Source: Podarcis vaucheri (taxonomy: Eukaryota). From it: 64,000 nucleotides of DNA. The position numbers and the translations under genes were made by a program. The stretch is taken from assembly GCA_965113315.1 (NCBI GenBank), contig OZ220366.1. One strand, given 5' to 3'. Of this stretch, positions 3,474-60,074 are shown piece after piece; within the stretch, counting starts at the first letter, position 1; each line of letters opens with the position of its first letter. The notes below the pieces were generated by a model. It was not told the DNA's origin, did no database searches, and saw only the letters and a list, made by a program, of their open reading frames with translations.

Positions 3474-3733
3474 GCTTGTTTTTTTCCAGCTCTGGAGGCT
3501 AGGACCCAAACCAAAGCATTCAATTACAAGAAAGAAGATTCCAACTAAATATCTTCTGACAGTAAGAGCTGTTCGACAGTGGAACAGACGCCCATGAGAG
3601 TGGTGGATCTCCTTCCTTGAAGGTTTGTAAGCAGAAGTTGGATAGCCATATGTCATATTTGATCTAGTTGAGATTCCTGCATTGCAGGGGGTTGGACTAG
3701 ATAACCCTTGGGGTTTCTTCCAACTCTACAATT
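3474..3733 (+). mobile_element. CR1 LINE 3' fragment
   Basis: Contains the ttctgacagtaagagctgttcgacagtggaacag segment and the CR1-type 3' end ggttggactagat...ttccaactctacaatt. Homologous to 27440-27856. Confidence 0.75.
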
Positions 3734-5492: not shown

Positions 5493-5959
5493 CATTGGTG
5501 TTTTGTGATTTGGTTCACCACATTCCAAAAGAGTATCCTTTGGGGATAAATGCTGTTCATTTTTTGTTGAAATTCATGGGACAACCTTTTGCAATGGTCA
5601 AGATATAATTTCTCCCAAGATATAATAAATTCCAGACAAATGATGACTCAGAAAATACTGAAATGATGATGAAAATTTAAGCGATGACTCAAAATGTCAT
5701 ATTCAAGTTACTGATTTCCCCAAGACCTCCTAGATCATTAACATATAATGTTATACAATATATGCATATATTTGGCAACTTTACTGCTGGAGACTACTGT
5801 TAAGGACATCTCCGCCCATTAACCTTCTCCTTTCCTAATCTTCAGTTTCCTAACCTTTCCTAATCTTCAGTTACAGATAGGTAGCCGTGTTGGTCTGCCA
5901 TAGTCAAAATAAAAAATTCCTTCCAGTAGCACCTTAAAGACCAACTAAGTTAGTTCTTG

Positions 5960-5997
5960 GTATGAGCTTTCGTGTGCATGCACACTTCTTCAGATAC
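5960..5997 (-). ncRNA. Minimal type I hammerhead ribozyme motif (Penelope-associated)
   Basis: Exact reverse complement of 6093-6130. Confidence 0.75.
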
Positions 5998-6092
5998 ACT
6001 GAAACAGAAGTTGCCAGATCCTTCTATATAGTGAGAAGGTAGGGAGGGGTATTACTCAGAAGGGTGGTGGGAATGGGAGATTGAATGGGAGT

Positions 6093-6130
6093 GTATCTGA
6101 AGAAGTGTGCATGCACACGAAAGCTCATAC
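6093..6130 (+). ncRNA. Minimal type I hammerhead ribozyme motif (Penelope-associated)
   Basis: GUAU-CUGAAGA-A-GUGUGCAUGCACAC-GAAA-GC-UC-AUAC. Stem I GUAU/AUAC, CUGANGA and GAAA core boxes, stem II hairpin, palindromic AGCU in place of stem III. Predicted cleavage after C6126. Confidence 0.75.
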
Positions 6131-7208
6131 CAAGAACTAACTTAGTTGGTCTTTAAGGTGCTACTGGAAGGAATTTTTTATTTTTCCTAATCTTATAACA
6201 GAATTTTTTCAAGTTACTGAAAATTGGAAAGGAATGAAATGCTCCAACAACAGAAGTTGGCAGAATAAAGATACCATGTTATCTTAGAAAACCTAATGCT
6301 GGCAGAAGTTGTTGTCAAAGAAATAACCTTTCCCATGTTGTTATCTCTTCGTCCCATAGACCAATGGATGTCTAACGGTACTGGTAGAATTTCATTTCCA
6401 TATATATGTAATGTATTGATCCACAGAAAGAATCTTGTTCCAACCCTCTGAGCAAAATGTTAAGGTCATCTGTTTTCACATGCATAGCAGGAATATTGTA
6501 AACATTTTCCACACTAGTCTGTTGCAGCAACTCATTTGCTACAAAGATCAAGTTTCAAGCACTGCTCACAAAGGTTCAGGAAAGGCATTATATGAATTAT
6601 TAGATTGCTCCCGATGTTGCCCCATATTCCTATATGTACAGGTTTGAGCTGGCAAAATCCAAAGAACATTCATATTCTATTATATAATTTTATTATCCCT
6701 CTTCACATAGATGGGGAGGGGGGCGGGACTCAAGTGTGTAGGTAGGTAAGAGAATTGTGCATGATGGGCCTCATCAACCAGACACTGCTTCTGACCCAAC
6801 TAAAATCAATTCACTTGAATGGGGTGTTCTGCAATTAGAACATGGTGAGTGGAATTTGATATATCCTCCATCATTTCCTTCCCAGCTTCCATATGAAATA
6901 TTTTGACATACTGCAAAGAAGAAGAAAAAAACATGCTATGTAGCAGGTGGAGCCATGGGAAATATTTTATTTTTTTTACTGGATTTTACAGATTCTGGAT
7001 TTGGATTCTCTGATCAATTTCTTTTCCAACTATGTGGCTGCCCTTTGAAGTTAACATCAGAGCTTTGTTCATTGATAGAAAGTCAGGGAACCAAAATGAG
7101 ATGAGGAACTTCCGAAGCTGCTGTTTCGAAAAAGCCACCTGTGGTCCTCTCCTCTATACGTATATCCAAATTAAACAGGGTAAATGGAAAGCTATATGGA
7201 CTGGGTAC

Positions 7209-12450: not shown

Positions 12451-12642
12451 GGAAGAGGTGTAGCTGAGTGGTAGAGCATCTGCTTTGCATATAGAAGGTC
12501 TCAGTTTCAATTCCCAGTATCTCCTGGTAGAGCTGTGAGTTCATCCTCTGAAGTCCTGGAGAGCGGCTTCTAGTCGCTGTAGACTATACTGAGCCAGATA
12601 GGCTCTGATTCAGTACAAGGCAGCTACTTGTGTTCCTGTGTT
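12451..12642 (+). mobile_element. tRNA-derived SINE (Squam2-type)
   Basis: tRNA-like head tagctgagtggtagagcatctgctttgca...gtttcaattccc, followed by a non-tRNA body and a tgttcctgtgtt tail. Confidence 0.7.
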
Positions 12643-13026: not shown

Positions 13027-13073
13027 GGTTTGCCACTACTTTAAGTGGCAGTTTGGCTGCCCCCAGCTTGCGC

Positions 13074-13506
13074 TGTGTTGAAATCTGCACCGTGCAAGGC
13101 TAAGGAAGACTTAAACACGTCGCAGAGTTCTGAAAAACAGACCAGAGGCAATTGTACTTCATCCAGCAGAGCTTTAGTGCTACTGAAGGCAAATGAGCAT
13201 AATGGTCACAAATCCAATATATTCAGGATTGGCACGGTCCATAAGAAATCCAGTTCCAGCAGACTTATCATAAACTAACTTACAAGAACTTATAATATAA
13301 CTAAACCTTAACACTATATACGGAACAGAACACCATGGCCGGAACAAAGAGATAGAACGAGAAAGTGAGCGAAACCGAGGCTCCTCCTGGCCTGACTATT
13401 ATAGTTAGCATGACCTTGACAGAAAGGATAACAGAACCAGTTTAAACCAGCTGTACTCAGCTTCCCAGAAGGAATAACCCAAACATCAGAAACCTTCCAC
13501 CACACA
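13074..13506 (-). mobile_element. Possible solo LTR
   Basis: About 430 bp with imperfect TG...CA inverted ends. TATA-like and decayed poly(A)-signal-like motifs occur in LTR order on the minus strand. No clean TSD found. Confidence 0.35.
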
Positions 13507-14418
13507 GACAAGCTTCCAGAACCCTCTTGAACTAATCAGAATAGGATAGATCTCTACACATCAGATCAATACTTTCTGTACTAAGAAATGCAAACTGACA
13601 ATCTGTCCTCCAGTTTATCAAAAAAACGTCCTTCCTATGATGCAGAAGAGGATTCCATTTTTCTGCCTTCTTTCTCAGAGCAACTGAGAACTTCTATAAA
13701 ATTTCTGGGGGTATAAATTTTTGAGCTTTCCTAATTGTTCCAAAGTGACCAAAGGGGGTGGGTGGGATCAAACCCCTGTATGCCAGCCATAAGAATGTTA
13801 CCATTTTCCCCTCTCCCTATCAATAATTTCCAAATGCAATTTCTTTTCTCTGCAATTGGTGGAGAACAGTCAATGAAGGAGAATTTTAACAGCATAGCAC
13901 TACCTTCAAAAACTCAGTGGCAACTCAGAATGCCCCATATAATTGATACTACAAAAACAAAAAAAGTTCCTGAATGACAAGTCCCCCTGTTGTCCACGGA
14001 GACAAAGAGCCCTGCAAGTGACATACATGATCCCAAAGTTCTCATCAAATAATTGCCTTCTATATGGGCATGCCAAGCAGTTCTCATTTCAAGCACTGTG
14101 GCTCACAGCGTGATAAAAGAAAACGCAAGTGGTGACTTGGGATCCATTTGGGCTGTCAAAATGCATAGCAAAGAGCAAGAGGTTCATGCTACAAAACATC
14201 AGTCACTGCAGAAGTAATAAGGATATCTAACTGACACAACATTTACAATGCAAGTTTAAACTTATGCCTTGGTGCAACTGGGATCTTTATAACAGCCATG
14301 TCATCCACGTTCACTAATACAGCTCATGACAGGACTCTCAAGCCCACAATAGTTGGGACATCTTAACTCAGGAAGACTATGACCACCATCTAGATTATAT
14401 TGGTTTTATGGGACTAGC

Positions 14419-23066: not shown

Positions 23067-23321
23067 GAGAGCCAGTGTGGTGTAGTGGTTAAGAGCGATA
23101 GACTCGTAATCTGGGGAACCGGGTTCACATCTCTGCTCCTCCCCATGCAGCTGCTGGGTGACCTTGGGCCAGTCAGACTTCTTTGAAATCTCTCAGCCCC
23201 ACTCACCTCACAGAGTGTTTGTTGTGGGGGAGGAAGGGAAAGGAGAATGTTAGCCGCTTTGAGACTCCTTCGGGTAGTGATAAAGCGGGATATCAAATCC
23301 AAACTCTTCTTCTTCTTCTTC
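23067..23321 (+). mobile_element. Squam3-type tRNA/CORE SINE with (CTT)n tail
   Basis: Head gccagtgtggtgtagtggttaagagc, MIR-like core gggtgaccttgggccagtca and CTT tail. ttcttctgttt is repeated on both sides. Confidence 0.85.
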
Positions 23322-24124
23322 TGTTTATGCAGTCCTTCCCCGCGACATAGTCTGAAAATGGCCTGCCGCATCCTGCCATGTGAACCATGGCAGAAAGTTG
23401 AAACCACAAAGGAAAATTGTAGCGCATATAAACATAAGATGGAGAAACAGCCAACATCTTTGCACTGCTGCTGTGCAGGTGGTACTCACTGTGTTGCTGA
23501 GATGGTATAATGCTCAAGTAGACAATACTGAGCTAGGTGAACAAATAAGTTGACCTCATAGAGTAGTTTCTTATGTTCCTAATAGCGCATTGACAAGCTT
23601 GTTTTCTGTGTGCAGGGGATTTTATCTATGGCGGGGTATTTGAATCTGTAGCCTGAAGTGGAACACTCCAGGAAAAGCCTCACTACTTGCTTATGCTTTG
23701 TAAACACTGCATTTAGAAGAGTAATCATAGAAATGTCTGAAAATGTCAAGTCTCATTTGCATGCAGCATTTTTATGACTCTTCATACCCATCAGGCTAAT
23801 GAGTGCACAAATGGCAACTGAGGGAGGGGGGAATTTAGGGGGTGTATTTATTTATTTATGTATTTATTTGCTTCTTGTCAAAGACTACCGATGCATCAGA
23901 TGAAATCTGCCATGTAAAAACCATGTGTGCACAGGGTGTTGAGATTCCAAAGACTGTTATCTATTAAGGAGGTAGAAGACTCATTATTATTAGCTAGAAT
24001 TTGTAACTCACTCTTCTTTTCTAAAGAAAGCTGTAAGCCATTAACAATATATGCCAGTCTGAGTAAACTATAACAACAATACCTCCTAACAAACAGTATA
24101 ACAGTATAAGCAAAAAGCTATTAC

Positions 24125-24828: not shown

Positions 24829-26353
24829 GGGAGAGTGGGTCACCTGATGTTACTGTGATGTCAGGTGACTGACAGGTGGGCGGTCTCCGTTCTTCACCCT
24901 TGGTCTAGAAGCTTCGAGGCATTCATGGAGTGGGGAGGGCAGGGTCACCGAACCACATGCAAAAGTGACTGAGCATCAGGGCTGGCCCTATTCTTTTCAG
25001 TGCCAGACTACTCCATGTATATACTGAAGATGTGCAAAGCATTTTACAACACAGGAAAAGCACTTCTGGCATACTGGCGTCACATGTAACTTGGGGTCAT
25101 AGCCACAGATTATTCTTTCCCTACCACAATTCGGTAGCATTCCTAGATCTCTCCAACCTCACTATCCCTGGTTTTCTTCAGAGATTTATAGCACTCCCAT
25201 TTTCTTAAAAGATTCACAATGATTTATTCTCCAAGTCAGTAACAGTGTCATCATTACTCAACCATCCAACTGTGCTGCATGTTACGTTAATAAATCATCA
25301 AACTCGAAAATCAATACCTCAATGAATTGCAGCAAATTAAAAGCGTTCCTATTCGATGGTTCCACCTGTATAGTTGGAGCTTTCGCTGTCTGAGTTCATA
25401 AAACTTCCACCGGCTAGTTAGGTCACCACCGTTCTAAGCAGCTCTGAAGAATCAATGTCAGACAAATATTGTCAGTTGATTATTCCTCCCCACACACACA
25501 CACACACTCTGCATTAAACTGTCAGCATGTCTCCAGTATATTACTGTGATACTTGCTTCCTCTGTGGTGTCTTCAATCACTTTCTTTTATTGCAGGGTAT
25601 CCACCCAAGCCCCCCCCCCCGACCCATGTCTCCATTTTCTTGTGGTTCAAGGGACATCCCAGTCCCATTTTAAATCTCCTTTTCAGTTTAAGATATATAT
25701 GTAAAACAAGCATTTCAATACCCCAACCGCCCCATATTTCATTCTGATCGTTGCCTCTGCTCTCCAAAGGCAACGGAACTAAACTACTTGTAGAATTTTT
25801 TACGAGTGATTTGTGCCAGGGCAATTAAATTCCAAGGCTTGATTTACTGATGTCATTTTTTTGCTCACCCTACATTCATCTGCTTAATTTAGCTAGATCA
25901 ACATATAGAAGTCTGAATTGATGAGACACCACTACAGAAGCTGAAATAAGTCTTGCCTGTGAAGGACAATTTTATCCAATGCACACACGCACACATATAC
26001 ACACATCAGTATGGAGAGAAGTAAATCTGCAGACAAGCCTACTGATGCCTAGTCTCTCATCCATAGAAGAATGCCAAGTCTAGCATTAAGTCTAATGGCA
26101 GACAAATTACTGAAACTGGAGTGAAGATAACAGTAGATTACCTCTCTGAAATCACAATGGAATATTTTCTTTTGTTCCCTCCTTCTTAGCATCATAAGAA
26201 TTCATTGGCAGAAACCACCAGAAGTTTTTATTGCTTAGTCATAGATCAGGCGAGCTAAAGGTGTTAGGTAAAGAATTGTTAATTAGGTCTATCAATTATA
26301 ATTTCCTGTATTTGGTTACATATGCCTTTCTGGTTATACAGTGCAGAGCATAT

Positions 26354-27439: not shown

Positions 27440-27856
27440 GGAGACCAAGATGATAAGGGGTCTGGAAACCAAGCTTTATGAGGAGCAGTTGAGTGAGCTG
27501 GGTATGTTTAGCCTGGAGAAGGAAAGACTGAGTGAAATGAGTCATATCCAAATATCTGAAGAGCTGTCACATGGAGGATGGAGCAAGCTTGTTTTCTGTT
27601 ATTCTAGAGGGTAGGCCCTGAACCAATGGATTCAAATACAAGAAAGGAGACTTAAACTAAACATTAAGAAGAACTTTCTGACAATAAGAGCTGTTCAATA
27701 GTGGAACAGACTACCATGGAAGGTGGTGAGCTCTCTTTCATTGGAAGTGTTAGACGGCCATCTGTCAGGGGTTCTTTAGCTGAAATTCCTGCATTGCAAG
27801 GAGATGAGCTAGATGACATTTGGTGTGCCTTCCAACTCTGCAATCCTATGATTCTG
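27440..27856 (+). mobile_element. CR1 LINE 3' fragment
   Basis: Peptide TKMIRGLETKLYEEQLSELGMFSLEKERL (CR1 ORF2 C-terminus) and the ttccaactctgcaatcctatgattct tail. Confidence 0.9.
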
Positions 27857-28098: not shown

Positions 28099-28298
28099 NN
28101 NNNNNNNNNNNNNNNNNNNNNNNNNNNNNNNNNNNNNNNNNNNNNNNNNNNNNNNNNNNNNNNNNNNNNNNNNNNNNNNNNNNNNNNNNNNNNNNNNNNN
28201 NNNNNNNNNNNNNNNNNNNNNNNNNNNNNNNNNNNNNNNNNNNNNNNNNNNNNNNNNNNNNNNNNNNNNNNNNNNNNNNNNNNNNNNNNNNNNNNNNN
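28099..28298. other. Assembly gap (200 N)
   Basis: Run of N. Round length suggests a placeholder of unknown true size. Confidence 0.99.
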
Positions 28299-29709: not shown

Positions 29710-31209
29710 TTTGGCCTACAGTCATCCCCAAAGTTATTGTGGGACCTCTGACTAACTGGGACTCAAGGAAAAGGATACAGTCTGTTGTTCCTTTTGTTCT
29801 ACAGAAAACATAATATGCACACAATCATATTTTATTCAGAAACCATTTAAAGTTACTAAGCAGTGTACAGAAGTAATTTAAAATCACAAGGTACTGCCCT
29901 CAGGCTTTTGATTTAAAAATTACAAATACACAAAAGGAACAAAAGGGGACAAAGTGTTGAGAAACAGTGGAAAACAAACGGAGCAATATGATTTCTGAAC
30001 CAGGGGTTGCGTCTAAGAAATTAAAGATCAACAGAAGGGGGAGGCCCAACAATAGCACAAGAGAGATGAGTTTTAAGAAGCATTTAAATGCAAGCAGTGC
30101 ATGAAACACAGGCAAAGCGTAGCCATGAAAAGGCACTCTTGATTGCAGCTCTGCATTTGTGGGATTGGTTTTTCCAACAGAGGGTCTCCCAGCAGCAACT
30201 AGAAAATACTTTTGACAGAATTTCATTTTGGAAAGGCTATGATAAAGTTGGTTTCGGGAAGTATGATAAATAGAGGCTTAAAAAAAGCATTCATCCCATC
30301 TGCTCTTTGTAATGAACATGCCGCCATGCTGCCTTGAGTTTCCAGGGTTCTGTGAGGTCAGAGAATGAATATACAAGCAAACAGTTGAGGAATATCATAC
30401 TGGAGAAAAGTGAAGAGTTTACCTCCATCTCACTTCAGATGAGAACCCTTTCAGAAAACTCTTAAAAAGAACTCAGGCCATTTTGGAGATTTCTCCTAAA
30501 GGCCATAACCACTTGGTCTCTCACAGGTTTTCTACCAGTCCCAGACTTAGCTACAGAAAATGCCTCTTCCCTGCCTTCTCAAAACTGATTGTTCAGTAAA
30601 AGGGATGCTGGTGGTTCTTTGGGCTCCTTTAGAGCAGAACATGCCAAATGCAGGAAGGTCTGAAGGGGAGATGTTGGGTGTGGGGTTTGTGTGTGCATCA
30701 TGCTCCTCCCCACATCTGTCCACTTTTGACACCTTCACGGGACTACTAGCTCCACCAGAACAAGAACGGGCTGAAATGTGCATGTAAAATAAAACCAACA
30801 CCTGGAACATAGGAGTACAGGAAGTTGCTTTAGATTGAGCCAGGCCACTGGCCCATGTCTACTGTCTATACAGACCAACAGCAGCTCTCCATAAATTAAA
30901 ATACTTTGCAATGAGCTGTTGCTCACTTGAACAGAAACCTCTTCTTTCTGAGTTTTGACCTAATGTTTAGGGTAATAAGCTGTGCTTTCAAAAAAATAAA
31001 ATAAAAATAAAAAATGCATCTCTGGTGGCTAGGGGTGTAGGGCACGAGTCATTAGGGGTGCCATATGCATAACCCAAAATAGGTCAAAACAGAGCACCAA
31101 TTCCCAACTGTTTATGGTAATTTATATGTTTATACCCACATTAAGAAATAATTACTATAACTTACATAGAAATACAATACATCTCATCATAGTGGGGAAA
31201 GACACCAGA

Positions 31210-31505
31210 GGTATATGGCAGCGATTGGCTGGACAATGATGAGTGGTGGCTAGATACTGAGGAGTGGGCACTGGGAGAAATGGGGCTGGAGACTGACTTG
31301 GAAGAAGGGATCAGTGAACTTGAGGGGGGTGTAACAGCCAGGGGACAAGTGGCAGAGGCAGGATTGAGATTGAGGAACAGGTGCAGGAGGAGGGAGAAAC
31401 AAGCCAGGCTGGTAATCTCACCTCTCCTGCTCTACTGTCTCCCGGGACCAGGTGAGAATTGAAGAAGGAGAAGCAGAAGCAGGTTACAGACGCAGTCAGG
31501 TGGGA
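31210..31505 (+). mobile_element. Probable truncated LTR-retrotransposon LTR fragment with a decayed acidic/basic reading frame
   Basis: Purine-rich block translating DWLDNDEWWLDTEEW...SPALLSPGTR*ELKKEKQK, a pattern I associate with squamate LTRs. Ends not resolved. Confidence 0.4.
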
Positions 31506-31518
31506 GATATACATAAAC

Positions 31519-31727
31519 TAGAGTTGCCATATTTGAAAAAGTGAAAATCTGGATGCAAAAGTTGTTGGCAAAGCTGTTGAGTTCCGACATGGCAAAATCT
31601 AGACTTCCAACATGGCTTGCCTTAGGTTCAGATTTTCCCAGAGATTCCAGCGATTTCCGACCAGACACTGCTTTCGACTGCCATATTCCGGCTATGTCTG
31701 GGAAATTCACAACTTATGGCAACGCTA
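31519..31727. mobile_element. hAT MITE
   Basis: TIRs tagagttgccata / tatggcaacgcta. 8-bp TSD acataaac / acattaac. Confidence 0.75.
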
Positions 31728-32988
31728 ACATTAACTGAGGTCAGGGGTGGTGCCTCTCTGTTGCTATAACTGCCTCATTGGGTGCACGCCTAGGAGTAGC
31801 TGAGATGTAGGACTGATAGATACACCTTTTCCTAACTTTTGTACCTTTGACAATAGTTATTTCCCCTCTCTTGACATTCCTTGCCTGCAAGGGTCGTGAC
31901 ATTATATTATGGTTTGGATCCCTGTTTTATACACGATACAGAGGAGCAAAAGAACACAATTCAGCATGATTCAATGAACATTAAGATTTAGGCCTTCATT
32001 AATTTTCTACTGAATTATTCTTTAGCAAGTTTCTTTTTCCTTGACAGCCATAATATTGCCACATTTATTTAGTATAATCACCCTCTCTTCATTACTTATT
32101 CCTGTTTCTATAATTTTAAGCATATTCAACACTTCCAAAATTGTGACAAGCTCTGACCTTTAAAATGTGCTCACCTCATATCATTTTCTCATTGTATGGA
32201 AATGAATAGAAAAATTATATTAAAGAATTAGAACAGATTCGTGTTCTTCAAATAAATTTGGAATTATTCTTTCTGTGGCTTGTACACACAGCATATTTTT
32301 TAAATCTATCATTCCACTCTTTTGTCTTGATACCCCAAAATAGCATTTTGTATTATAGTGCTTAAGACATAATACTAAGCCATGGTTTGGAGTCTTGTGG
32401 GCATGAAGTTGATGAGCCTCTCCCCACTCCTACCATGTCAAGAAAATTCCTGACATGTCCTGGTTTTCGGGTGTAAAAATGGCAATGGGGGAATTTTGTC
32501 TAGGAAAACCCAGATGTATGGCAACACAATGGAAAAAGCAGTTGAAACAGCTCAAAAAGGTTAATATCACTATTTTCATGGTAGCTGAACAATTTGGATT
32601 TGTTCCCAATTTTGGTGGGTTTTTATAAAAAACTTAACAATTTATGGATCTTCTGAGAAAAGGTCAGCAACTTTGTGGGTGAAATATGGCACCCCTCCTA
32701 CCATGTGTGGTGATTTCCTAACCTTCTAGTCTTGTTTGAGGCCAACTATAGTTCTGTGTTTCTCTTGAACTGGCAAATAATGATTTTCAGTTTCTCTGCA
32801 AATCAGGATCAGAAGGTGTGCTAAAAGTGTTTTCCTGCCTTTGCATCGTTATGTGGATTATTAGCAGAACTGCAGCAGAAATAAGGCATCACATATGTTC
32901 TTTTTAAAAGTTGCCCTTTTGCAGCCGTTTATGCAAAAATTAAGTATTGTAACGTAACTAATATAGTAAGGATGACACCAATGGGATA

Positions 32989-33085
32989 TCTGAAGAAGTG
33001 TGCATGCACACGAAAGCTCATACCAAGAACTAACTTACCGTAGTTGGTCTTTAAGTTGCTACTGAAAGCAATTTTTTTTATTTTG
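32989..33085 (+). mobile_element. Short Penelope-like pseudo-LTR fragment with hammerhead motif
   Basis: Near-identical to 6096-6184. Exact 12-bp flanking duplication accaatgggata (32977-32988, 33086-33097). Confidence 0.8.
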
Positions 33086-34167
33086 ACCAATGGGATAAAT
33101 AGCTTAATACCCCAATGGTGTTTCCTTGCTCAGCTTCTTTGTGGTGCAGTCGTTCCATTGATGGCCTTTATATTGCTCTGGTAGGCTTTCAGCTTCACCC
33201 TTTAACATATAATTCTGCAGGGTTTTTAGCTATAGGACTTGATATGGACTAGAAAGGTCTTAGACACATCCTAGCACGCTGTACTCTTTCAGCTTCAACG
33301 TCTCTATAAATAAAAAAAAGAACATCAGATATGGGGATGATATATGTGGGTTTATCTTTAGACAAGTTGACAATAATCCTCTCTTAGCCATCCACCTGTA
33401 TGTTTTGACTTAACACCCCCAAACCGCTGATCTTCAGCATGAACTAACTTGCGAGCTACTCTACTTAAACACACAGACAGAGAAAGCAGCCGTCATTACA
33501 AAAGAGCCTCCCGCTGGGAGGTAACTACACTCCATTGATTTGCCTGGTTTGTTTTTGCAGATTAAAAAATTGCAGTATGGTTTTAGTGCCTCTCTTACAT
33601 GGAGCCATTAAACTGCAGATGCTTGGGGCTGGTGGAGTGGGGAGGGAGAATAAAAAGGGGGGGAGGCACCATTTTAATTATATAGTGTCAAATAAAAGGG
33701 GAAAATCATTTCAAGAAATGTTCTATGTCTTTTAAATCCCTTCTATCTTCCACAGCTCGTACCTTTATCTCCCTTTATAAAATTCACGGAGGTATGTGTT
33801 CAAAGGACTGGTTTTCAGAGAAAGCTACTGAAAGAAATTGTATTTTTATTGGAGGAAAGATATAGGTTTTTATCTACTGTTTACAATAGATGCTTGGCCT
33901 GTGAGCATAAAGAGAAGGTTATGGGTAGCTTCCAAGGACTGCACAAACTAAAGGTTTTATATGTGAAGGACTTTGAAGAATCACCTTACAGCTGTGAGAA
34001 AATATTTTTTTAAAAAAAAATAGAATAAAGTCATTCTTTAAATTCTTTACAATCCAAGATATAATTTGAAATTAAAGTGAACTCCTCCAAGTTATTCCAG
34101 AAATATATCAGTGTCCATGTGGGCATTCATTTCCCAAGTCATGAATGATCCAAAAACCCATGACTGA

Positions 34168-35197: not shown

Positions 35198-37181
35198 GAG
35201 GATTTAAACATAACCATCTTTAATTCACCCTTCTGGTCTCCAGGGTATGAGAGCAGCAGAATCAAAGCGTATGTTGAGGGTTTTGTACTTGACTTTGGTG
35301 ATCTTATATACAGTGAGAAATGGCAACATTCTGCCCTAGTCATATTTTATGTTAATCTTGTCTGAAACCTGATACAACTTACAGCTGGGTCTCTCAAGCT
35401 AGAAAGACTTAGTTAAAAATCAAAATATGGTACAGCAACAAAAAGCACAGCAACATCCATATGCAAACTGAAAGAGAACCAAATATGCATTTAAGATGCT
35501 TGTGTAGTGCCCAGCACATTGCTGCTGACAGTAAGCATGTCCTTAATTGAAGAAATATACTGTGTTTATGGTGATGCAATATGAAAGCTCACTCTGTCTT
35601 TGTATCTGTGAAGGTTGGGGAAAATACCTTGCTAATACATTTACATGAGCTATATTCACATATTCCTTGCATTTGCACATATTCCTTTAGCCCTCCTTCT
35701 GATGTCATATTCCCCCTCCTCCAATAACCATGTGCTGTGTTCAGTTGTGCAAGGTGAACTCTTGCACATGAGTAGGGGCTCTATGCAGTTGGGTTACCAG
35801 ATTATTCTAGTGTTCAGACTGCATAGAGCCACTGCCTTTGAGCAGGAGCTCACACATTGGGCTTTCTGTTCTCACAGCTGCTCATGGCATGTAGTTCCTG
35901 AAAATAATTAAGTTGTGGGGATAAAAGCACAGCCCTGCTCCTAACTGCATACGTTTAAGCTCTGACAAAAGTCTACCACTCTACAGCCTACATCTCCATG
36001 CAAATCCACACTTCCTTTGCTTAGGAACTCTACAATTCTATGATTTTGTTCTATTTGTCTGGAACCCCTGGCACCCAGAGCACTGCCGTTTCACCTTTGC
36101 AGTGATTGTGGGAAAAGCAATGGCCTTAATAGGAGAGTTTTGAGTGCTGCTGCCAACTAAGTTTTGAGTTAGCAAAAGAGACAGAGATGCAAGGCTTAAA
36201 AGCCTGGGGTGATTTGGGACTCACATGCAAGTTTGGGGGACACATAATATGTGGAGAAGTGGTCAGACTCCATTCCACACTGAATGATGGTTTCTATATG
36301 AGAAACTGTGTATGGACATCTCTTATTGTTTCTGCAGAGGTGGTATTGAAACAATCAACCTAGTAGTAGTAGTAAACATCTTGATTGGGGTGGGGAACGT
36401 GTGTTGTTGTCCAGATGTTGTATTCCTACTCCCATCAGGCCTTGCCAACATGGACAATGATCAGGGGAGTAATGGGAGTGGTTGTCCAGCAACTTCTTAG
36501 AGCCACAAGTTCCTCATCTTTGAACTAGATTAAAAGAGCACAACATTTTTAAACTCCACTTCTTTTCCTATATGTAAGTGTGTACTGTTTGCAGGCAGTC
36601 CAGTCACAGATGACCATCTTTCCTGTCCAAACCTTCACCTCTGAATACACAGTATCATTACAGACGTATCTAGACAGAAGTATCTCACAGAAGATTTAGT
36701 CCAATCATCAGACAGCAGACCTCAGAGATAGGCAGTGCACAGGCAGCAAATCAAAGTCTGATTTAATAACATTTTAATTATGCAATAATTATTTATTCAT
36801 TAAATTGTTTATTCTCCTACTTCATGTGAAATCTCTCGTGCCCTCGCAAGAAAACTGCATGGTTTCTTCACAGCCTTAAAGGCTCAGATAGTATTTTAGT
36901 TCTTCCTACCACATTTAGCCAAGAGAGTGTTGGTTTAAAATTCAGCCACTAAAGTGAGCCATTTCCTTAGTGGTGTTTCTCAATGACAACAGAAGTTGTT
37001 CTGGACCAGCCATAAACTTTGCCAGTGCACCCAACAGAAGACTCAGGAGACCATGCTCTGGTGAAAGAGCTTACATTTATTCAATGTAACACCTTAAAGG
37101 ATCTGCAAACCAACACACATAAATAGTTGAATCAAAATACAGTCTGAGCAAGTAAGTTCCCTAAAATGGGAGGAATCAGGT

Positions 37182-37264
37182 ACTCCCAACTCATGCACAA
37201 CTTTAACCTATGGTCTTGGAGAACTCCCAACTCATGCACAACTTTATGCCTATGGTCTTGGAGA
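37182..37264. repeat. 41-bp tandem duplication
   Basis: actcccaactcatgcacaacttta(a/tg)cctatggtcttggaga x2. Confidence 0.9.
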
Positions 37265-37428
37265 AAACGACTGGAAGGAATACTTCCTTCCTTGCTCCAA
37301 GAACCCCAGGTATGTGGACTTGACAAGCACACAGTGGCCCCACCAGCTCAGCATTCACCCCAATTCACATGCCATGCTTAAAGGGCACCCCCAGTGACCC
37401 CCACACAAGGCAGTATAATGTGACCAAA

Positions 37429-37790
37429 AGGTAAAGGACCCCTGACAGTTAAGTCCAGTTGCAAATGACTCTGGGGTTGCAGCGCTCATCTCACCTTACT
37501 GGCTGAGGGAGCTAACGTTTGTCCACAGACAGTTTTTCTGGGTCATGTGGCCAGCATGACTAAGCCGCTTCGGGCGAAACCAGAGCAGCGCATGGAAATG
37601 GCGTTTACCTTCCCACTGGAGCGGTACCTATTTATCTACTTGCACTTTGACATGCTTTCGAGCTGCTAGGTTGGCAGGAGCTGGGACCAAACAATGGGAG
37701 CTCACCCCGTCGCAGGGATTCGAACCGCCAACCTTCCAATCGGCAAGCCCAAGGCTCAGTGGTTTAGACCACAGTGCCACCCAAGACCCG
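37429..37790 (-). mobile_element. Sauria SINE, full length
   Basis: Complete head, B box (ggttcgaatccc) and tail. 11-bp TSD atgtgaccaaa. Confidence 0.92.
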
Positions 37791-40700
37791 ATGTGACCAA
37801 AGAGTGTCCTTATCACAATTTGGCCTCAATTATTTATCCCACCATATCTTGTGCTTCCTGCCTGGACTAACAGCCAACCTATACAAATGCCACTCCAAAC
37901 ACCCAACTCCAAACAGAATGAAGTAGGTAAAAAAGGGGAACCCCAAGGCCAAAACAGGCCCCCAAAGAAGAATTCCTACTCAACTCCCAAACTAGCAAAG
38001 CCCATACAGCTTAAGGAAGGAGAGCCAGAACACTTAAGAAAAGACTGGAATGTTTGGGGAGAAGCATGGCTTATAAAGGCTTGCTTCCCCCTCCTCTCTT
38101 CCTATTGGTCCAACTCGTCAGCTGGCCAATCTTCAACTCCACCCTGGGACAAACCAACTGAGTCTTCTCCAAAGGGGAGTTGGGGTGTGGTAAATGTGGC
38201 AGCAGCATTGGCTGAAAAACCACCAACATATTCCTTGCTGGAAGTTCACACTAATCAAATTTGGCAATGCCCAGAGGTGATGGAGTAATTCTCAACTTTT
38301 TAGCGGAAGATATTCCAGCCTCCAACCATCCCCAGGTCTTTCTTCAGACACAGGGAATGTTCCTTGTAAATTATTTTAAAGCCTAACTATGCATTGAGCT
38401 ACACGTGTTTGTTTGTTTTTTATCCTAGGTGGGAGAGGGGCAATTTGTATTGCAAATGTGGCAGGTCAGGAATAGCGGTTTAACCCTTCCCTCACCAGTC
38501 ATGATCCTGATGGAAACTGTACTTCCCACACTGAGTTAGCAAATAAAATAACTCCCCTTGATGCCAATGGAACCTTTCCCCCAAATTGCTGCCTGCAGTA
38601 TGGGAGCACTTTTCATCAGGATTGTGGCTGGGAAGGAAAGTGTTACTTTCTTTCTGCATGTGGCAAAAAGTCATTCAATTAATGTAATGTATGGTGAAGT
38701 TTTTTAAGTGTTGGCATTTCTAATTTTCATCCTTATTGCCATTATCCCATGAAAACCAAAGGTGGTCATATCAGGTAAGGGGGAGATCATGAGAAATCAA
38801 GTTATTATTATTATTTTTTAAAGGGATATTCCAGTTCTTTAGTCCTGTGTAACATCTTTCAGAATATATTGGTTTCTGTATTGATAGCCCCAATCTACAA
38901 ATGTAAAAATGAAACATTTTGTGTTGTGTTATTTTTCTGAGTTTTGCGTTAGGGTGGAAAGATATGTATCACTGTTCATTATATCAACATTTGATTAATT
39001 AAGAAGTTCTTTTACATGGAAATGGTACACAGCTAATGAAGATGCAAAGACTTGTCAGCACAGCAATTGGCTCACAAAGCTGTTATATAAAAGGTCTAGA
39101 AAACGGCAGTATTAATTTGTTCCCAATAAATTCTGGCTGGGTTCCTGATTTCTCATTTTCTTTACCCTACCTGCAGGATAATACACTTGCAGGAATGCAG
39201 CTAATAATGCTTGGGATGTGTGTTTATGGCACCTTTACCCACAGAAAATTGCCTTGGTCTTATTAAAGCAGCCAAACTCTGCCGTCTAGCTGGAGATTCT
39301 TATCAAAGTTTCACTGATGTATATCCAAAACAAAGCTATTGCAAGTGAGTTAAACTTTACCACAGTGTCATTAAAATCAGAATTCATTATAACCCCTTCC
39401 CCACTCATCAAGATATAATGGGTGCTTTCCACATCCCACTGAAGTGAACCACAGTACTTCCAGTGAGTTACCAAAGCAACAGACAGACCTTCCTTTAAAA
39501 AATAAAACCTGCTATAGAGAACTGTAGGGGGAAGTAGGGTAGTGTGCACTTTATCTCCTGATCTGCCACTGCTGGGCCCAGATCCACATGTGCAGAAGCA
39601 AAGCCAATCCATACCATACGTTTAAAGCACACTTAAATCACTTGATCAATAATGGCTTGATCTGAAGAATCCTGAGAACTGTAGTTTGTTAAGGGGTACT
39701 GAGAGTTGCCAGAAGACCCCCTCACAGAGCTATAATTCACAGCGTCCTTGAACTACAGTACCCAGGATTCTTTGGGAGAAGGCATGAATGGTAAAGCAGC
39801 AGTATCCCTGCCACTTCATAACATCCCTTGGGCCAGGTGGAGAGGTTTGGATTTCAGCCCAAGTGTGGTAGTTATTGGCAGTAACCAACAGCAGCTTTCT
39901 TTCTGAATTCTTTAACTATGGCGTCTCTGCCATCACCTGCACTGGAGAAGCTACAATTAGTATTTCCATGGACCACCATTCTCTTCAGTGCTTCTGGTTG
40001 AAGCACAAGGATTTATGTTTGTGCAATGGGACTTTCCCCCTTCTCCTCCTTCACGCGCCACCTGCGGGAGAGCACTCAGAGTAGATTAGGAGAAGGTGTG
40101 GTGTCTGTGTAAGGGAAAGTCCTCATGCAATGGGACACTTACTTAGCACTGCATTGGACACAAGCCAGTCTTTCTGGCCAGTCTTTCAGAGTGCCATTCA
40201 AGCAGCGGCATAAAGGAGAAGAGAAGAATGGCCCTTTGATTTATTTTTCTAGGCATGTGTTATCATCCATCTATTTTTCTATATAAAAGACACTTATACG
40301 TTATGCCACCACTCCTTTTCATTTACCTCAGTGTGAATAATCTGTATATCCAAATTTCAGATATATATGCAGGTGTGGGGGTGGGGTTTCTATTTGATCA
40401 AGGGTATAGTTTACTTCTGTTATGTTTTTATTTCTCATCTCTCTCAAAAAAAGTTATTGAGGTGTAGTAAGTACAAAGTATTACTTTTTTAAAAAGGTGT
40501 GCTGTTTGGAGTTGGGTGATGGGTTTTGTTTTGTTTTTACCAACTAATATTAATATCCTTCCAGCATTCTCTGTCAAGGTATCAATCAATGTCATTAAAC
40601 TCATGATTACTTTCCAGGTAGGCAAAATGATGAATTGCCAATGTGACAAGCAATTATAATCCACACATTTATTTTTAAAAAAACAAGGTGAGGAAGTCAC

Positions 40701-45039: not shown

Positions 45040-45269
45040 ATTCCCTCAGCTAGGCTCACTTATGGTTTAAAGCCCCACTAGGTAACAATTGCCCATCAAG
45101 CAAGGAAATCCATCAACCTCCCAACCTCATTTCCATACAAAGCCACCGGACACCAGATTGACTCCCAAATATGTAATGGTATGAAATTTGATCTTTATTT
45201 ATCAAAACGTGATTGGTCCCCCTTTCGGTCCCTCAAGAAACATATTCCAGCAAAAAGGCTAACGTATAT

Positions 45270-45294
<25 letters not shown>
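45270..45294. repeat. (TA)n microsatellite
   Basis: Perfect dinucleotide run. Confidence 0.9.
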
Positions 45295-45300
<6 letters not shown>

Positions 45301-46676
45301 AAGCCGGAAGCCATAAAAGCAGAATAGCATAGTCAGCAGGGTTAAAACTGTATATGAAAAGCTTGGGGAAAATAGAAAGCTCTCTGGCTTGTACCCAGAG
45401 GGCAATGAGGCAGGCAAGCCTCTCTTATTGGGGTAAGCTTATTATTTATCCTTAATTGATCACATAAGCTATTGGAATGTACTCTGATCTCTGAATTGCA
45501 GGAGAACACAGGCATTGCCTTGCAGCTGGACTTTCAACATATTAATACAATTGGGGAGCAATCTAAGCTCCCCCCCCCCGGCCTGGCAGGCTTTACAGGG
45601 TGGCTTGGCCACCACTCCCTATGTAGCCCTGCTTCACACAGTGGCCAAGGTGAAACAAGGGCTGCAGGCAGATCACTGTATCAGCCTGAAACTAGCACAG
45701 CCATTGTCCCTGGATTGTGCCTAGTGCCATCATGCAATGACAGCAGGGCCATCTGGTGGGCTTAGCCTTGCTCCATGAAAACTCCATTTTGATGTTTTCT
45801 GGTGACTGGCACTGGCAGGGATCCCATTGGAGTCAGCAATGTAGATTTGGTAGGTGGAAGGGGAGCTCTTCATCAGCGGAAGGAAACCAGAATCCCTTCA
45901 CTGACGGTCTCTCTGTTGGGAGGCTGATAGAAGTTGATTCGGTTGGTGGAGGGACACTCCTGCCCACTCCAACCCCCCATGACCACAGCAAAGAAATTAG
46001 GATTGCTCTGTTAATATCCCAAGCCGAGAGGAATTTGAGGGATTGTAATTCCCTGCTTCTTGTTTCAGACAAGCATTACGAGTCACCAAGATTCATCTTA
46101 TAATTATGATGGTTAATGACATATCTGCTATGTGGAGTCTAGTGGTCATATTTGCCCTTTTCTCAGCCCCTTTTAATTCCATTATGCCCTCTGAAACAGA
46201 TGTTTAGCTGCTTGGAGATGAGAGCTCATCTGTTCACATTGATTATTGTCCGAGCCAGAGGGATAGGCATGATTGCAAATGTAAATCAATCAATGAGCCT
46301 CCTTTTTTACAATGACTTATGGAGAGCGCATTCTTGCTTGGATCAGTGGACAAGGTTTTCCTAAGTCATTTACACACCTGAGGGGAAAAGTCAAAATGGC
46401 ATCTTGCCCCACTCATTTTTTTTAATAAAAAAGAAAAATACTACTATTAAATGACCTAAGTTACATAAAGATATACATAAAGACAAAGAGAGGGAAGTGG
46501 CGGCTGGGGTGTGTGGGGGTGTGGAGAAAGCTAACTGAACATAATTCCATCAAATTATGTCATACTTGTACAAATAAGAGTAATAATAAAAATGTCTTCT
46601 TGACTATTTCATCCTAAAGTCAAGGAAGGTGTTAGCGTAAACAAGACATATGATTGTATCTTACCTTGGAATTATA

Positions 46677-49679: not shown

Positions 49680-50348
49680 TTATACGATATGATATCTTTA
49701 TTGTTATTGTCCCTTGCGGAACAATGAAAATGAAAAACTACATAAAACTACCACAAAACTACATAAAACTGCATAAAACTACTATAAAACTACAGAAAAC
49801 ATTCAAAAACCCCTAAAAACTCTAAAACCCCATTTTAAAATACACTATACTACAGAGACCCCTTATGCTGTGTTTAGAGCCAGAATTGCATTAGCGTAGA
49901 AACTGTTTCTCAGGCGGCTAGTCCTGGCCTTTATAACCCTATACCTTCTTCCAGAAGGCAGAAGCTGAAAGAGATCATTTCCGGGGTGCGTACTATCCTG
50001 CGCTATCTCTGCTGCTTTCTTATGGTACCTGGCAGCATAGATTTGATCTAAGGTGGGAAGAGTGCACCCAATTATTCTCTCTGCAGTCTTTACAACCCTG
50101 GATAGCATTGTTTTTTCCCTGGCTGTGCAGCTCCCAAACCACACACACAGACCATAAGTTAGTACGCTCTCCACAGTGCAATGGTAAAATGCCATCAACA
50201 GGTCCTTTGAGAGATTGTTTTTCTGGAGGATTCTCAGAAAATATAACCTCTGCTGTGCTCTCTTCACCAGGTCTTTGCTGTTCTCTCCCCAGGTTAGGTC
50301 GTCTCTCAACTCCATTCCCAGAAATCAAAACACCGAGACCTGTTCCAT
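49680..50348 (-). mobile_element. Rex1/Babar-clade LINE 3' fragment nested in a small palindromic MITE
   Basis: Peptide EQVSVF*FLGMELRDDLTW...VKRAQQRLYFLRIL...FYHCTVESVLTYGLCVWFGSC...HPGNDLFQLLPSGRRYR...TSRLRNSFY. Natural stop, tandem-repeat 3' UTR and AATAAA. Confidence 0.9.
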
Positions 50349-55914: not shown

Positions 55915-56431
55915 CGAAGAATAAGAGTTTTTTCACTGGCTCCAAATTACACTTGGCTTGGGGACTGCATTTATATACATTCTTTGAGATGGTAAAATGT
56001 GTTGTACTGAATTGTCTCAGAAAATGCTTCGATTTTCATACAGATCAGCAACATCAATTGCAGGTGTTTTGATCAATGTTCATGCTGTATTTTTAACAGT
56101 GAGGAATTAGGGAAATGGGAACATAATTCAGCCCCCCTCGCCCCCGCCTCCCTTCCTTAGCTATGTGATCTATTGACCTGGTCGTTTTTTAATACAACAG
56201 ATCCAGGTGGTATAGGGATGGCTAAATCCATCATTTTCAGTTTTTCTCTGTTGCTCACCCCCCCCCCAATCTGAAATTCAGTTCGCCACATTTTCATATG
56301 AGTTTGTTATTTATTTTAACTTCAGGGTAGGTGGGATAGGAATCAGCAACAGTTTAGTGGGCATTTATCTGACTATACATGTTTCTGTATGCAATTTCCC
56401 CTAATAGACACATTTCCCCACATTCCCCCCT

Positions 56432-57455
56432 AAAGACTCTCCTCCCTGGAAGAGAGGGGAGTGGTTGTGGACGGGAGCCCGAGCTCCGCCCATAGCAGGG
56501 GGCGTTAGCCCCCTGCCTTCTCCTCTTACCTGGCTGGCGCCCACGCCCCTCGGCAGGCACCCAACCAGGTGCCTCCGAGGGGGCGTGTACAGCAGGCTTT
56601 TGCTGCGGCGCCAGCCTCTCCTCGGCCTCATTCTTCGCCATCGTCTCGTCGCGAGTCACCCACCCTCCACTCCCTTTGAGCTCAGGGTCTTAGTTCATTG
56701 GCCTTGCTGTGGACCTTAGGTTGGTCGCCCTGGTTGTCTAGGGGGCCTGGTAGGAATTTTTCCGTTTGGCATTAGGCTTTTTGGTTTTTCCGCCTACCTC
56801 GTAGCAATCGTCACAACTTTTGTGGTATTGGTGAGTAGGTTAGGCATTGGAATAATGTGTTGTGGTGCGTCGAAGGGCTAGGCGTGGCCATCGCCTATGC
56901 CTTCAATTTTTGGGTATTCCGTTAAAGGGATCTGGCGGTCGTGTGTTCTGTCTGATGCCTGCTTGGCGGGAGGCCATGGCACGACCCTCGGTGACATCAG
57001 GAGAGAGCCTATAGTTGGATTAGCATCAACAGGCTCCACCTACTGGTGAATAAACCCCCTTGTTTTAGATATCCAATGCCAGTGTGGTGTAGTGGTTAAG
57101 AGCGGTGGACTCGTAATCTGGGGAACCGGGTTCGCGTCTCCGCTCCTCCACATGCAGCTGCTGGGTGACCTTGGGTCAGTCACACTTCTTTGAAGTCTCT
57201 CAGCCCCACTCACCTCACAGAGTGTTTGTTGTGGGGGAGGAAGGGAAAGGAGAATGTGAGCCGCTTTGAGACTCCTGAAGGGGAGTGAAAGGCGGGATAT
57301 CAAATCCAAACTCTTCTTCTTCTTCTTCTAAGCCAATACCTTTTCACTGCTGTAATCAATAAAGTTGTGGCCTTTTCTTGCCCATTAGCCTTATATCACG
57401 TGTCCTTGCGTATTCATTTCACACTGCGGGGGGAGGGCGGGTCCTCGAACCACAA
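56432..57455 (+). mobile_element. ~800-bp non-coding retroelement terminal unit, probably DIRS/Ngaro-like (copy 1, interrupted by a SINE)
   Basis: Homologous end to end with 58987-59788. Ends aaagactct...cgaaccacaa, CpG-rich 5' part, aataaagttgtggcc near the 3' end. No TSD; the empty site ccctaatataatg restores the host hAT-like repeat. Confidence 0.65.
57078..57329 (+). mobile_element. Squam3-type SINE nested in copy 1
   Basis: Close match to 23071-23321. Absent from copy 2, which reads atccaatgcc|taagccaatacc. Confidence 0.9.
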
Positions 57456-58986
57456 TATAATGCCTTTTTACTAATAGATATGCTTTTTTATGTGCACATT
57501 CTCCTAATATATGCAATTTTGCCCATATTTTTGGGTCAGAGACCTGTACCACACAATGCAGAGAAGTGTGAATTTCAAAGGTTAGCAGTGTTTCAGTTCC
57601 ATGCATTGCTTCAGGAAGTGTGAACTGTGTAGGTCTGCATTAAATTGGGAACCGAAGTGAATTTCTTCTGCTTATCCAAGTTTCACTGGGCTGGGGGTGG
57701 AGCTGTCCAGATGACAAGTCTGTGTTGAGGAAAGGTAAGGGAGGAGAAAGGTTCAGCTCCCCTTATTGGATTGCAGCCACATGCACATGAAGAGCAAGCA
57801 TCCTATGCCATTTATCTTGGTCCTCTGGGTGGCTGCTGCATTTGGTGGCAGTAGAATCTGTCCAGAATAAAGTTCTCCATCAGCTTGGGATGCCAGCAGA
57901 CATCCACATGTGGTGATGTTGTGGCAGTCCAACAGTCCTTGCAGTGGCTCACACAACTGAGATATAAAAGATTCAATGCCAGGAGCCAGTTGAGACTGTC
58001 ATGTTGACAAATTAAGCTGCATGCCTTCTGAATGTGATTTATGAATAAAGTAATCCGCTTAATGCCGTATTCCTTATTTGTGATATGGTTTTATTGGTAA
58101 TGAAGAGTGGCATGCATATCTGAGTATTATGCAAATAAGCTTATTCATCTGATGCAATTGCAGCCAGAAAGTTAGCACAAGTCACAGTAAAGCATAGAGC
58201 ATGACAGCCTTTTACCAGTCTGGCTACTAATGAATATTTCTTCCCATGATTTTGTTTGTTCTCTGCATATAATACAAAAACATAGTAGGGGAAAGGAATA
58301 GGATATGGAGAAACTGCCTACTAATTTAATGTAACTTTTGTTGACCTTGCTTAACATAAGCTTAACACAGTTTGAAATTTGGCCATCATGAATTAATTGA
58401 TATTTTCAGCATTTTTATTTACTATTTTTGATAGCCGGCTTTTATCTTTCTTACTTAAAAACAAACTTAACTGATCTTTTCAATGATAGAGTTATCTTTT
58501 CTTTAATACTGAACACAGAAGTGATCTGCATGATTGTTATCATTTGCTAATTATAGTTTATGAACACAGAGGATTGGTTTCTTTCATAAAAAGAGGGGGA
58601 TATAAAGAACAACAATAAAAAACATGAAACTCCTTATGATCTGTCCCAACAGTTGTTTGAGATGTGACAAATATTTTTATAGCATCTAATTTTCATATAT
58701 ACTCAGAAACACTAGCACTGTGCAATATAGAGAAATTATGCTGATAGTACAAAGAGTCCCACTGAAATTAATGAGCTCTTTATTACTGTGATTGTAATGA
58801 CTCCCCAATGGGCAATACATGCTGGAACAATACTCAGATAGCTTTGCTGTGTAGCAGTCCTTCTCCCTCTCTTTCTTGATATCTGTGTACACGTACACAC
58901 ACAGAGAGAACGTTTTGCTAATCTGGACCTTGGTGAGCTGGAGAATCAGCAACTACAGCAAATTTAAAATACACAGAATGTTGACA

Positions 58987-59788
58987 TTGTGGTTCGAGGA
59001 CCCGATCCCCGCGTAGTGGAATGAAAACACGAGGACAAGTGATATAAGGTTAATGGGCAAGAAAAGGCCACAACTTTATTGATTACAGCAAGTGAAAAGG
59101 TATTGGCTTAGGCATTGGATTACGTCAGCTGACTCCACCCCCTCAGAGAGGGGTGAGTCTAAAACAGGGGGGTTTATTCACCAGTAGGTGGAGCCTGTTG
59201 ATGCTAATCCAACTATAAGCTCTCTCCTGATGTCACCGAGGGTCGTGCCATGGCCTCCCGCCAAGCAGGCATCGGACAGAATACACGACCGCCAGATCCC
59301 TTTAACGGAATACCCAAAAATTGAAGGCATAGGCGATGGCCACACCTAGCCCTTCGACACACCACAACACATTATTCCAATGCCTAACCTACCCACCAAT
59401 ACCACGAAAGTTGTGACGATTGCTACGAGGTAGGCGAAAAAACCAAAAAGCCTAATGCCAAATAGAAAAATTCCTACCAGGCCCCCCGGACAACCAGGGC
59501 GACCAACCTAAGGTCCATAGCAAGGCCAAAAGAAAACTGAGACCCTGAGCTCTAAGGGAGTGGAGGGTGGGTGACTCGCGATGAGACGACGAAAAGTGAG
59601 GCCGGAAGGCTGGTGCCGCAGCATTTTGGGCTGCTAAACACGCCCCCTCGCAGGCACCTGGTTGGGTGCCTGCCCGTGGGCGTAGGCCAGCCAGGTGAGT
59701 GGGAGGCAGGAGGCTAACGCCCCCTGCTTGAGGCGGAGTCCGGCTCCCGACCACAACCACTCCCCTCTCTTGCAGGAGGAGAGTCTTT
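58987..59788 (-). mobile_element. ~800-bp non-coding retroelement terminal unit, probably DIRS/Ngaro-like (copy 2)
   Basis: Inverted homolog of 56432-57455 with the same termini. No TSD; the empty site reads gacattcacacaatacattt, the start of a common palindromic repeat. Confidence 0.65.
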
Positions 59789-60074
59789 CACACAATACAT
59801 TTAGACCACTATGATACCACTTTAAACAGACTTCACCCAGAGAATTCTAGGTACTGTAAAGCTGAGAGTTGTTAGGAGACCATTATTCCCCAGAGCTACA
59901 GTTGCCAGATTTCTTTGTCATGATGGATTAATTGTTAACCCACTCTGAGAACTAAAGCTCTAGGGGGGGGGGTATAGGGGTATCGTAACAATGCCCAGCA
60001 GCTTTAACTAATTATATCTCTCAGAATTATTTGGGGGATGCCCTGACCATTTAAAGTACAGTATCACAGTTCCT

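Follow-up and report, generated by a model that had tools for sequence, protein, structure and literature searches.

The window, by which we mean the whole 64-kb stretch of Podarcis vaucheri DNA that was analyzed, holds two copies of a 50-nt motif whose predicted folds place U tracts on both strands of a stem-closed internal loop, as is known from ENEs. This motif is a real, non-random feature of the sequence. We lean toward reading it as a compact two-loop RNA stability element of the ENE type, situated in the terminal repeat of a reptile retrotransposon, and on its modeled fold it would be a plausible ENE variant.

A two-loop motif in two copies of one repeat

An earlier note on this DNA had described a 6-bp lower stem closing a U5/U5 internal loop, with a possible second U3/U3 loop above it. 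We confirmed the motif at 56749-56798 on the plus strand and at 59429-59478 on the minus strand. Copy 1 reads GGTAGG AA TTTTT CCG TTT GGC ATTAG GCT TTT TGG TTTTT CCG CCTACC, and both the predicted MFE fold and the centroid fold of the isolated motif agree with the architecture described, the U3/U3 loop included (Table 1). Folded alone, copy 1 reached -13.8 kcal/mol (z -2.05), and 6 of 200 shuffles were equally stable. Copy 2 adopted the same fold at -12.2 kcal/mol (z -2.51), a stability shared by 3 of its 200 shuffles. The opposite strands folded worse (z -1.12 and -1.64) and formed the same pairs at a probability of at most 0.13. In the predicted folds AA and U5 face U5 and CCG within the internal loop of copy 1, while the right side of copy 2 consists of U6 and CG.

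Table 1. Positions of the motif, its carrier repeats and associated features in the window. E3 is the third, degenerate instance of the motif.
Feature	Position	Strand	Remarks
Copy 1, lower stem	56749-56754 with 56793-56798	+	6 bp; predicted fold
Copy 1, AA 5' of left U tract	56755-56756	+	
Copy 1, U5/U5 internal loop	56757-56761 facing 56785-56789	+	predicted fold
Copy 1, middle stem	56762-56764 with 56782-56784	+	3 bp; predicted fold
Copy 1, U3/U3 loop	56765-56767 facing 56779-56781	+	predicted fold
Copy 1, top		+	apical stem of 3 bp and 5-nt loop; predicted fold
Copy 1, CCG linker	56790-56792	+	
Rival pairing partner of the lower-stem 3' strand	56833-56845	+	alternative hairpin ~56792-56845
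ENE-like motif, copy 2	59429-59478	minus	right side U6 and CG; middle stem C-G, U-G, A-U
First AATAAA	57049-57054	+	250 nt after motif; copy 2 equivalent 59173-59178, minus
Second AATAAA	57358-57363	+	followed by G/T-rich stretch; ~95 nt before element end
Second AATAAA, copy 2 equivalent	59075-59080	minus	348 nt after motif
Host repeat, copy 1	56432-57455	+	non-coding; AA shared at both ends; SINE-interrupted; inserted in another repeat
Host repeat, copy 2	58987-59788	minus	802 nt, uninterrupted; same ends
SINE inside host repeat copy 1	57078-57329	+	94% identical to 23071-23322; adjoins ~36 nt deleted as compared with copy 2
Imperfect complement of the joined element ends (3' end and 5' start)	56454-56479	+	21/28 columns in copy 1, 22/28 in copy 2
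E3	37922-37980	minus	AGTAGG AA TTCTT ... TTTTTT A CCTACT
E3 carrier unit	36997-38341 (approximate limits)	minus	old, CpG-poor repeat unit
E3-unit parts	CCAAT 38108; TATAA 38075; motif 37980; SINE about 37427-37790; AATAAA 37081	minus	

The two copies of the motif differ at 3 of 50 positions. Two of these changes had been named before and were confirmed, CCG becoming CUA with the pairs C-G, U-G and A-U; the third, U5-CCG becoming U6-CG on the right side, was absent from the earlier note. The pairs are indeed kept in copy 2, but as evidence for the fold this counts for little, because all three changes are transitions and two of them fall at one CpG. Of the 24 single transitions possible at paired sites, 14 would preserve a pair. 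The motif (47 of 50 positions identical) is also not better conserved between the copies than its surroundings in the central zone (308 of 319).

Directly downstream of the motif, both copies carry a hairpin that is mutually exclusive with the ENE fold. When the whole elements were folded, the lower-stem pairs reached probabilities of 0.75 and 0.59 for the two copies, compared to 0.0-0.13 on the other strand. Of the 16 contexts folded, eight had the ENE fold as their best structure, both whole elements included; in the other eight it was 1.2-5.4 kcal/mol worse than the best one. Its probability fell to 0.0 when the pairing span was capped at 150 nt. Since the fold energies omit the gain from a triple helix, a poly(A) tail could tip the balance toward the ENE fold.

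Rarity of the motif and a third instance

We scanned the window with a descriptor that called for at least five U residues twice, a 6-bp lower stem and an upper stem. Just the two known sites were found in the 64 kb, at three stricter settings and at a G-U-tolerant one, and 30 block shuffles gave a mean of 0.0-0.1 matches per window. Dinucleotide shuffles of the element passed the strict form in 0 of 5000 cases and two looser forms in 13 and 59 of 5000. The descriptor had no match in 424,854 bases of loci from bacteria and archaea. When bacterial and archaeal genomes were scanned for the two halves of the motif, 79 loci were obtained as a background set; a 6-bp lower stem was present in two of them, the full architecture in none, and none was similar to the window. 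A plasmid search gave no match. These rarity figures flatter the motif, because the descriptor was fitted to it and because the two copies belong to one family and have to be counted as one event. A generic 6-bp pattern was present in 14 of 300 window shuffles, and a sequence-specific pattern, which was set after E3 had been seen, in 0 of 300.

No Rfam family matched the carrier element at gathering score, and none of the nine weak matches obtained up to E 10 over 56300-59900 covered the motif. Elsewhere in the window, a weak Rfam tRNA match (12454-12525, plus strand, 30.4 bits) is likely the head of a SINE. The exact left half of the motif, GGAAGGAATTTTT, recurs at 5912-5924 and 6166-6178; these candidates were rejected, as both occur without a complementary right half. 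The partnerless half lies in an inverted-repeat element with CTGAAGA...GAAA cores (5870-6185 and 32980-33087), which we take to resemble the hammerhead ribozymes of Penelope-type repeats.

E3 was first seen as a two-mismatch match and was then recognized as a second lineage. E3 retains the 6-bp lower stem, with the outer pair changed from G-C to A-U, as well as the AA, a pyrimidine/U tract on either side and a purine preceding the 3' strand. Its left tract is interrupted, and its upper part has a different predicted fold that lacks the loops of copies 1 and 2 (z -0.64). When a covariance model was trained on copies 1 and 2 only, E3 came out as the top held-out match (19.2 bits, E about 0.008, a value that is rough by a factor of five), followed by a match of 14.5 bits. 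With E3 added to the model, no further instance appeared in the window, the next match having 14.7 bits and E 0.19. In its own unit E3 lies 95 nt after a TATAA, with AATAAA near the unit end, and its distance from the 5' end of the unit (361 nt) is similar to that in the host-repeat copies (311-318 nt). The best local alignment of E3 and copy 2 is centered on the motif and is not significant overall, since 16 of 200 shuffles reach its score. The E3 unit and the host repeat are weakly alike at their 5' ends (16 of 2000 shuffles) and not at their 3' ends (730 of 2000), so the two carriers would be related very distantly, if at all. Covariation amounts to one two-sided change, the outer pair of E3, in three sequences, and 286 of 500 shuffles reach it. 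Judged from these comparisons, recurrence of the motif in a second repeat that can be aligned only at the motif is supported.

The same results bear on the possibility that the motif is a neutral by-product, that is, a G/U-rich repeat with chance U runs between complementary hexamers, with E3 a look-alike or a decayed unselected paralogue. The modest z-scores of the fold, its dependence on context, the missing excess of conservation, the generic pattern in window shuffles and the ease with which shuffles reach the E3-copy 2 score would all fit such an origin. It is nevertheless quite unlikely in our view, because no element shuffle passed the strict descriptor, no window shuffle contained the sequence-specific pattern (bearing in mind when that pattern was set), the held-out model recovered E3, and the full architecture was missing from all 79 background loci.

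The main rival to an ENE-type element is a structured RNA signal that is read by a protein, for export, packaging or the start of reverse transcription, and that does not clamp poly(A); the motif and the downstream hairpin might then be the two states of a switch. In all three instances the lower stem and the AA keep their very letters and not just the ability to pair, and the mutually exclusive hairpin stands right downstream in both copies. Furthermore, the short distance from TATAA to E3 would put the motif close to the 5' end of any RNA that begins at that TATAA. The symmetric U tracts on both strands of the internal loop are, on the contrary, an ENE hallmark, and no Rfam family matches the motif even at E 10. 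We give this rival a small though appreciable chance.

A palindromic kB-consensus match is present at 37933-37942, inside the E3 motif. Copy 1 contains GGAATTTTTCC and two GGAAA words on the other strand, which are kB- or NFAT-like. Together they would suit a reading in which NF-kB/NFAT-like transcription-factor sites act at the DNA level in a promoter region and the RNA fold is incidental. This we find hardly credible: copy 2 has 0 matches to these words yet keeps the fold, and the complementary hexamers 38 nt apart would be left unexplained.

The carrier repeat and its likely RNA strand

The DNA of the window is non-coding, and its repeat types look like those of a squamate reptile. The motif had been said to lie inside a retroelement, and its carrier is a non-coding repeat of about 800 nt with two copies in the window. 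The copies are inverted, 1,531 bp apart and about 90% identical, and if read through, these facing copies could form long double-stranded RNA. Their alignment shows 19 substitutions and 33 gap columns in the first 270 nt, and 14 transitions with zero gaps in the next 369 nt. The ends of both copies are identical, starting with AAAGACTC and finishing with GAACCAC-AA-T, and in both of the two copies AA stands at either end of the element with T next to it. Copy 1 has no target duplication longer than 3 bp, and a related host repeat near 7580 matches its empty site, in which AA stands once. For copy 2 we found a match of 4-5 bp only at an offset not shared by copy 1, one of about 400 start-end combinations tried. 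A short likeness to the element 3' end at 24932-24957 (+), with a score reached by 0 of 2000 shuffles, is probably a fragment of a third relative.

Duplication-free integration at a shared word is the rule for Ngaro as it is for DIRS1. Integration by a tyrosine recombinase is described as leaving identical ends and a shared short word without duplication (PMC3266345, PMC7192593), and DIRS1 is reported to insert at a short shared word without duplicating its target (PMC3266345). The host repeat behaves in this way, lacking a target duplication and sharing a 2-3-nt word with its target, as in Ngaro/PAT-type elements. Isolated non-coding repeat units, so-called solo A-B repeats, have been described for Ngaro in passages of PMC8547959, and the copies in the window are likewise isolated and non-coding. 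Here, in contrast to those, the class is inferred from the ends, since the window contains neither a reading frame nor an A1-B1-A2-B2 copy: RT or recombinase Pfam matches were absent among the 35 frames scanned of 137 open frames in the window, and no A1-ORFs-B1-A2-B2 copy with RT/RNase H and recombinase was found in it. Judging by these ends, a solo A-B repeat from a tyrosine-recombinase retrotransposon of the Ngaro/PAT type is the most likely carrier, an assignment that we hold with reasonable confidence. In the parts of the literature covered, PMC3212892 and PMC4350176 among them, the text does not confirm Ngaro in lizards.

A separate open frame (49866-50324, minus strand) matches Pfam ALKBH8_N with E 1.8e-16 and is presumably the end of a LINE reverse-transcriptase gene.

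A solo LTR is a rather doubtful alternative for the carrier. CA is a possible reading of the 3' end, and TGTGG occurs about 37 nt inside the element, after a purine tract. The TG...CA ends with a target duplication of 4-6 bp that characterize solo LTRs are absent, and the sequence common to both copies extends 5' beyond TGTGG. Three other stretches (13050-13520, 31190-31520 and 45060-45420) look LTR-like by eye; the motif was not found in them.

Two AATAAA words are present on the U-rich, A-poor strand of the element and none on the other, and 0 of 2000 shuffles give two. The statement that the motif lies a few hundred nucleotides upstream of AATAAA holds well, with 250 and 348 nt in the uninterrupted copy 2. 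Because AATAAA occurs on that strand only, the RNA strand is likely the U-rich one, as the earlier note had assumed. Near the element 3' end we observed a promoter-like cluster (59040-59135, minus, and partly 57330-57420, plus) with CAGCTGACG, two CCAAT and, about 60 nt before the element end, TTATA; CAGCTGACG and CCAAT also precede TATAA in the E3 unit.

The question of the strand mattered because the element read backwards has DIRS1-like NTT ends. A DIRS1-like element transcribed on the opposite strand would yield RNA with A tracts and not U tracts. The reversed element begins with ATT and ends with TTT, like the DIRS1 NTT termini described in PMC3266345, and near the reversed 3' end, hence just inside the 5' end of the element as read here, lies a stretch complementary to the joined ends (reached by 5 of 2000 and 61 of 2000 shuffles for the two copies). 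At a circle or B/A junction this complement would make a hairpin of about 28 bp across the junction. DIRS1-like elements occur in Anolis according to PMC3266345. Against this reading, the longest inverted arms measure 20 nt, compared to inverted terminal repeats of 66 bp or more in DIRS1 (PMC3266345), and the element has no near-perfect internal complementary region, the complement being imperfect (Table 1) where about 100% over 85-130 nt would be expected. Furthermore, AATAAA is confined to the U-rich strand, and the E3 unit orders CCAAT, TATAA, motif and AATAAA on its U-rich strand. We therefore regard transcription of a DIRS1-like element from the opposite strand as very improbable.

Comparison with known ENEs and with CR1 elements

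The motif shares with the KSHV PAN ENE a loop of five plus five U residues between short stems, a short basal bulge and a position upstream of a poly(A) site, which here is predicted from AATAAA. The A-minor triples of the PAN ENE dock on three G-C pairs. The motif differs in that its lower stem offers two G-C pairs and then A-U, offset from the loop by the AA before the left U tract and by a 2-3-nt linker, and in that the upper stem has just 3 bp before a second loop follows. On the upper side of the U5/U5 loop stand C-G and C-G (C-G and U-G in copy 2). Where the 3' U tract gives way to the lower stem, the three instances have a short bulge of CCG, CG and A, respectively. No adenosine triad or 3'-end pocket of the double-domain ENE kind was assigned in the motif, whose base carries a conserved AA. 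While the PAN ENE is proven by structure and assay, the motif here is a fold prediction.

Known ENEs bind the poly(A) tail via U.A-U triples and A-minor contacts, three A-minor triples in the PAN ENE (PMC7583470), and block deadenylases (PMC7583470, PMC13541005). Plant and fungal transposons carry double ENEs (dENEs), in which two loops are present and the lower loop has a bulge of 3-4 nt (PMC7583470, PMC13541005). For Evade, passages of PMC12501189 report that the triplex needs four U tracts and adjacent G-C pairs, and that deletion of the ENE lowers RNA and new insertions. The motif resembles the TWIFB1 dENE and the Evade/Copia93 ENE in its four U tracts and two stacked loops within a transposable element, predicted here as U5/U5 and U3/U3 split by a short duplex, as well as in the 3-nt bulge of the lower domain and perhaps in the G-C pairs beside the tracts. 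It differs in the 3-bp spacer, in the reptile host and in the upper domain, which is PAN-like in dENEs and here is U3/U3 without a bulge.

The likeness to the MALAT1/MEN-beta triple helix is limited to a bipartite U-rich loop. The element has no downstream genomic A-rich tract that could serve as third strand (AATAAA words and one A4 only), no tRNA-like element, and no match in Rfam to either MALAT1 or a tRNA-like RNA; the two parts of its loop are separated by 3 bp and not by one C-G pair and one C.G-C triple. Endogenous retroviruses of stickleback are listed as ENE carriers in PMC7583470, which cites Tycowski 2016 for them. They share with our case a predicted ENE in a vertebrate retroelement, as far as their description in that paper goes, whereas the carrier here looks recombinase-integrated and not retroviral. 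Since the PAN-like upper domain of dENEs and the MALAT1 features are missing, we call the motif ENE-like and do not count it as an ENE member. What carries this designation is the architecture, the position upstream of AATAAA on the same strand and the recurrence of the motif; the pairing kept in copy 2 adds little.

A similar motif had also been suggested for vertebrate CR1 3' UTRs. The motif was absent from two stretches of the window that we take to be CR1-like 3' ends (3491-3732 and 27603-27844); an assembly gap of 200 N lies at 28099-28298. In the part of the CR1 alignment of PMC4316615 that was covered, the right half of the motif was seen in Xenopus CR1-2_XT and the left half had 0 occurrences; the ambiguous ORF2/3'UTR boundary had been removed by its authors. 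CR1-2_XT keeps TTTGCCTTCC at the alignment cut, shortly before the terminal hairpin (PMC4316615 supplement), and is the only such row among 10 shown of 12 occurrences of that word.

Discussion

We propose that the motif is a candidate new ENE variant and suggest the following model for its action. Transcription of the repeat would yield the U-rich strand as RNA, with polyadenylation at either AATAAA. The poly(A) tail would then enter the U5/U5 loop, perhaps also the U3/U3 loop, and serve there as the third strand of U.A-U triples; other A residues would contact the lower-stem G-C pairs and the 2-3-nt bulge. Clamping of the tail would slow deadenylation of the intronless element RNA and thereby leave a larger pool for reverse transcription. 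Binding of the tail may be needed to draw the RNA out of the competing downstream hairpin.

ENEs in transposons are already known, and the vertebrate precedent is given by the stickleback retroviruses (PMC7583470). Predicted ENEs number about 200, most of them from plants and fungi, and reporter assays have confirmed about 10 (PMC12501189, PMC7583470); the passages of PMC12501189 name one ENE, that of Evade, as shown to raise retrotransposition. In the open-access literature covered we found no report of the motif, and none of an ENE from reptile elements, Ngaro or CR1, and the six passages returned from the supplement of Kojima 2018 (PMC5786205) contain no such motif.

A more far-reaching and clearly speculative idea, which we think improbable on the sequences at hand, is that of a sequence-fixed poly(A)-clamp module common to unrelated vertebrate retroelements, namely tyrosine-recombinase retrotransposons, LTR-like repeats and the long-3'UTR CR1 LINEs of amphibians and reptiles. 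Such a module would consist of a G-W-A-G-G-A-A stem foot, twin U tracts and a purine linker. If it exists, it was missed by earlier ENE surveys, whose finds were mostly from plants and fungi, and if the CR1 link holds, one RNA module would extend across retroelement orders. Solo repeats with promoter, clamp and AATAAA could then give rise to stable non-coding RNAs that are short, resemble PAN and carry their own switch between the clamp and the downstream hairpin.

If the motif works as an ENE-type element, the strategy of protecting transcripts against deadenylation would extend to the mobile DNA of amniotes, and notably to a tyrosine-recombinase retrotransposon. It would also add to the known ENEs a 50-nt two-loop design with a non-canonical foot, formed by a 5' AA and a lower stem with two G-C pairs.
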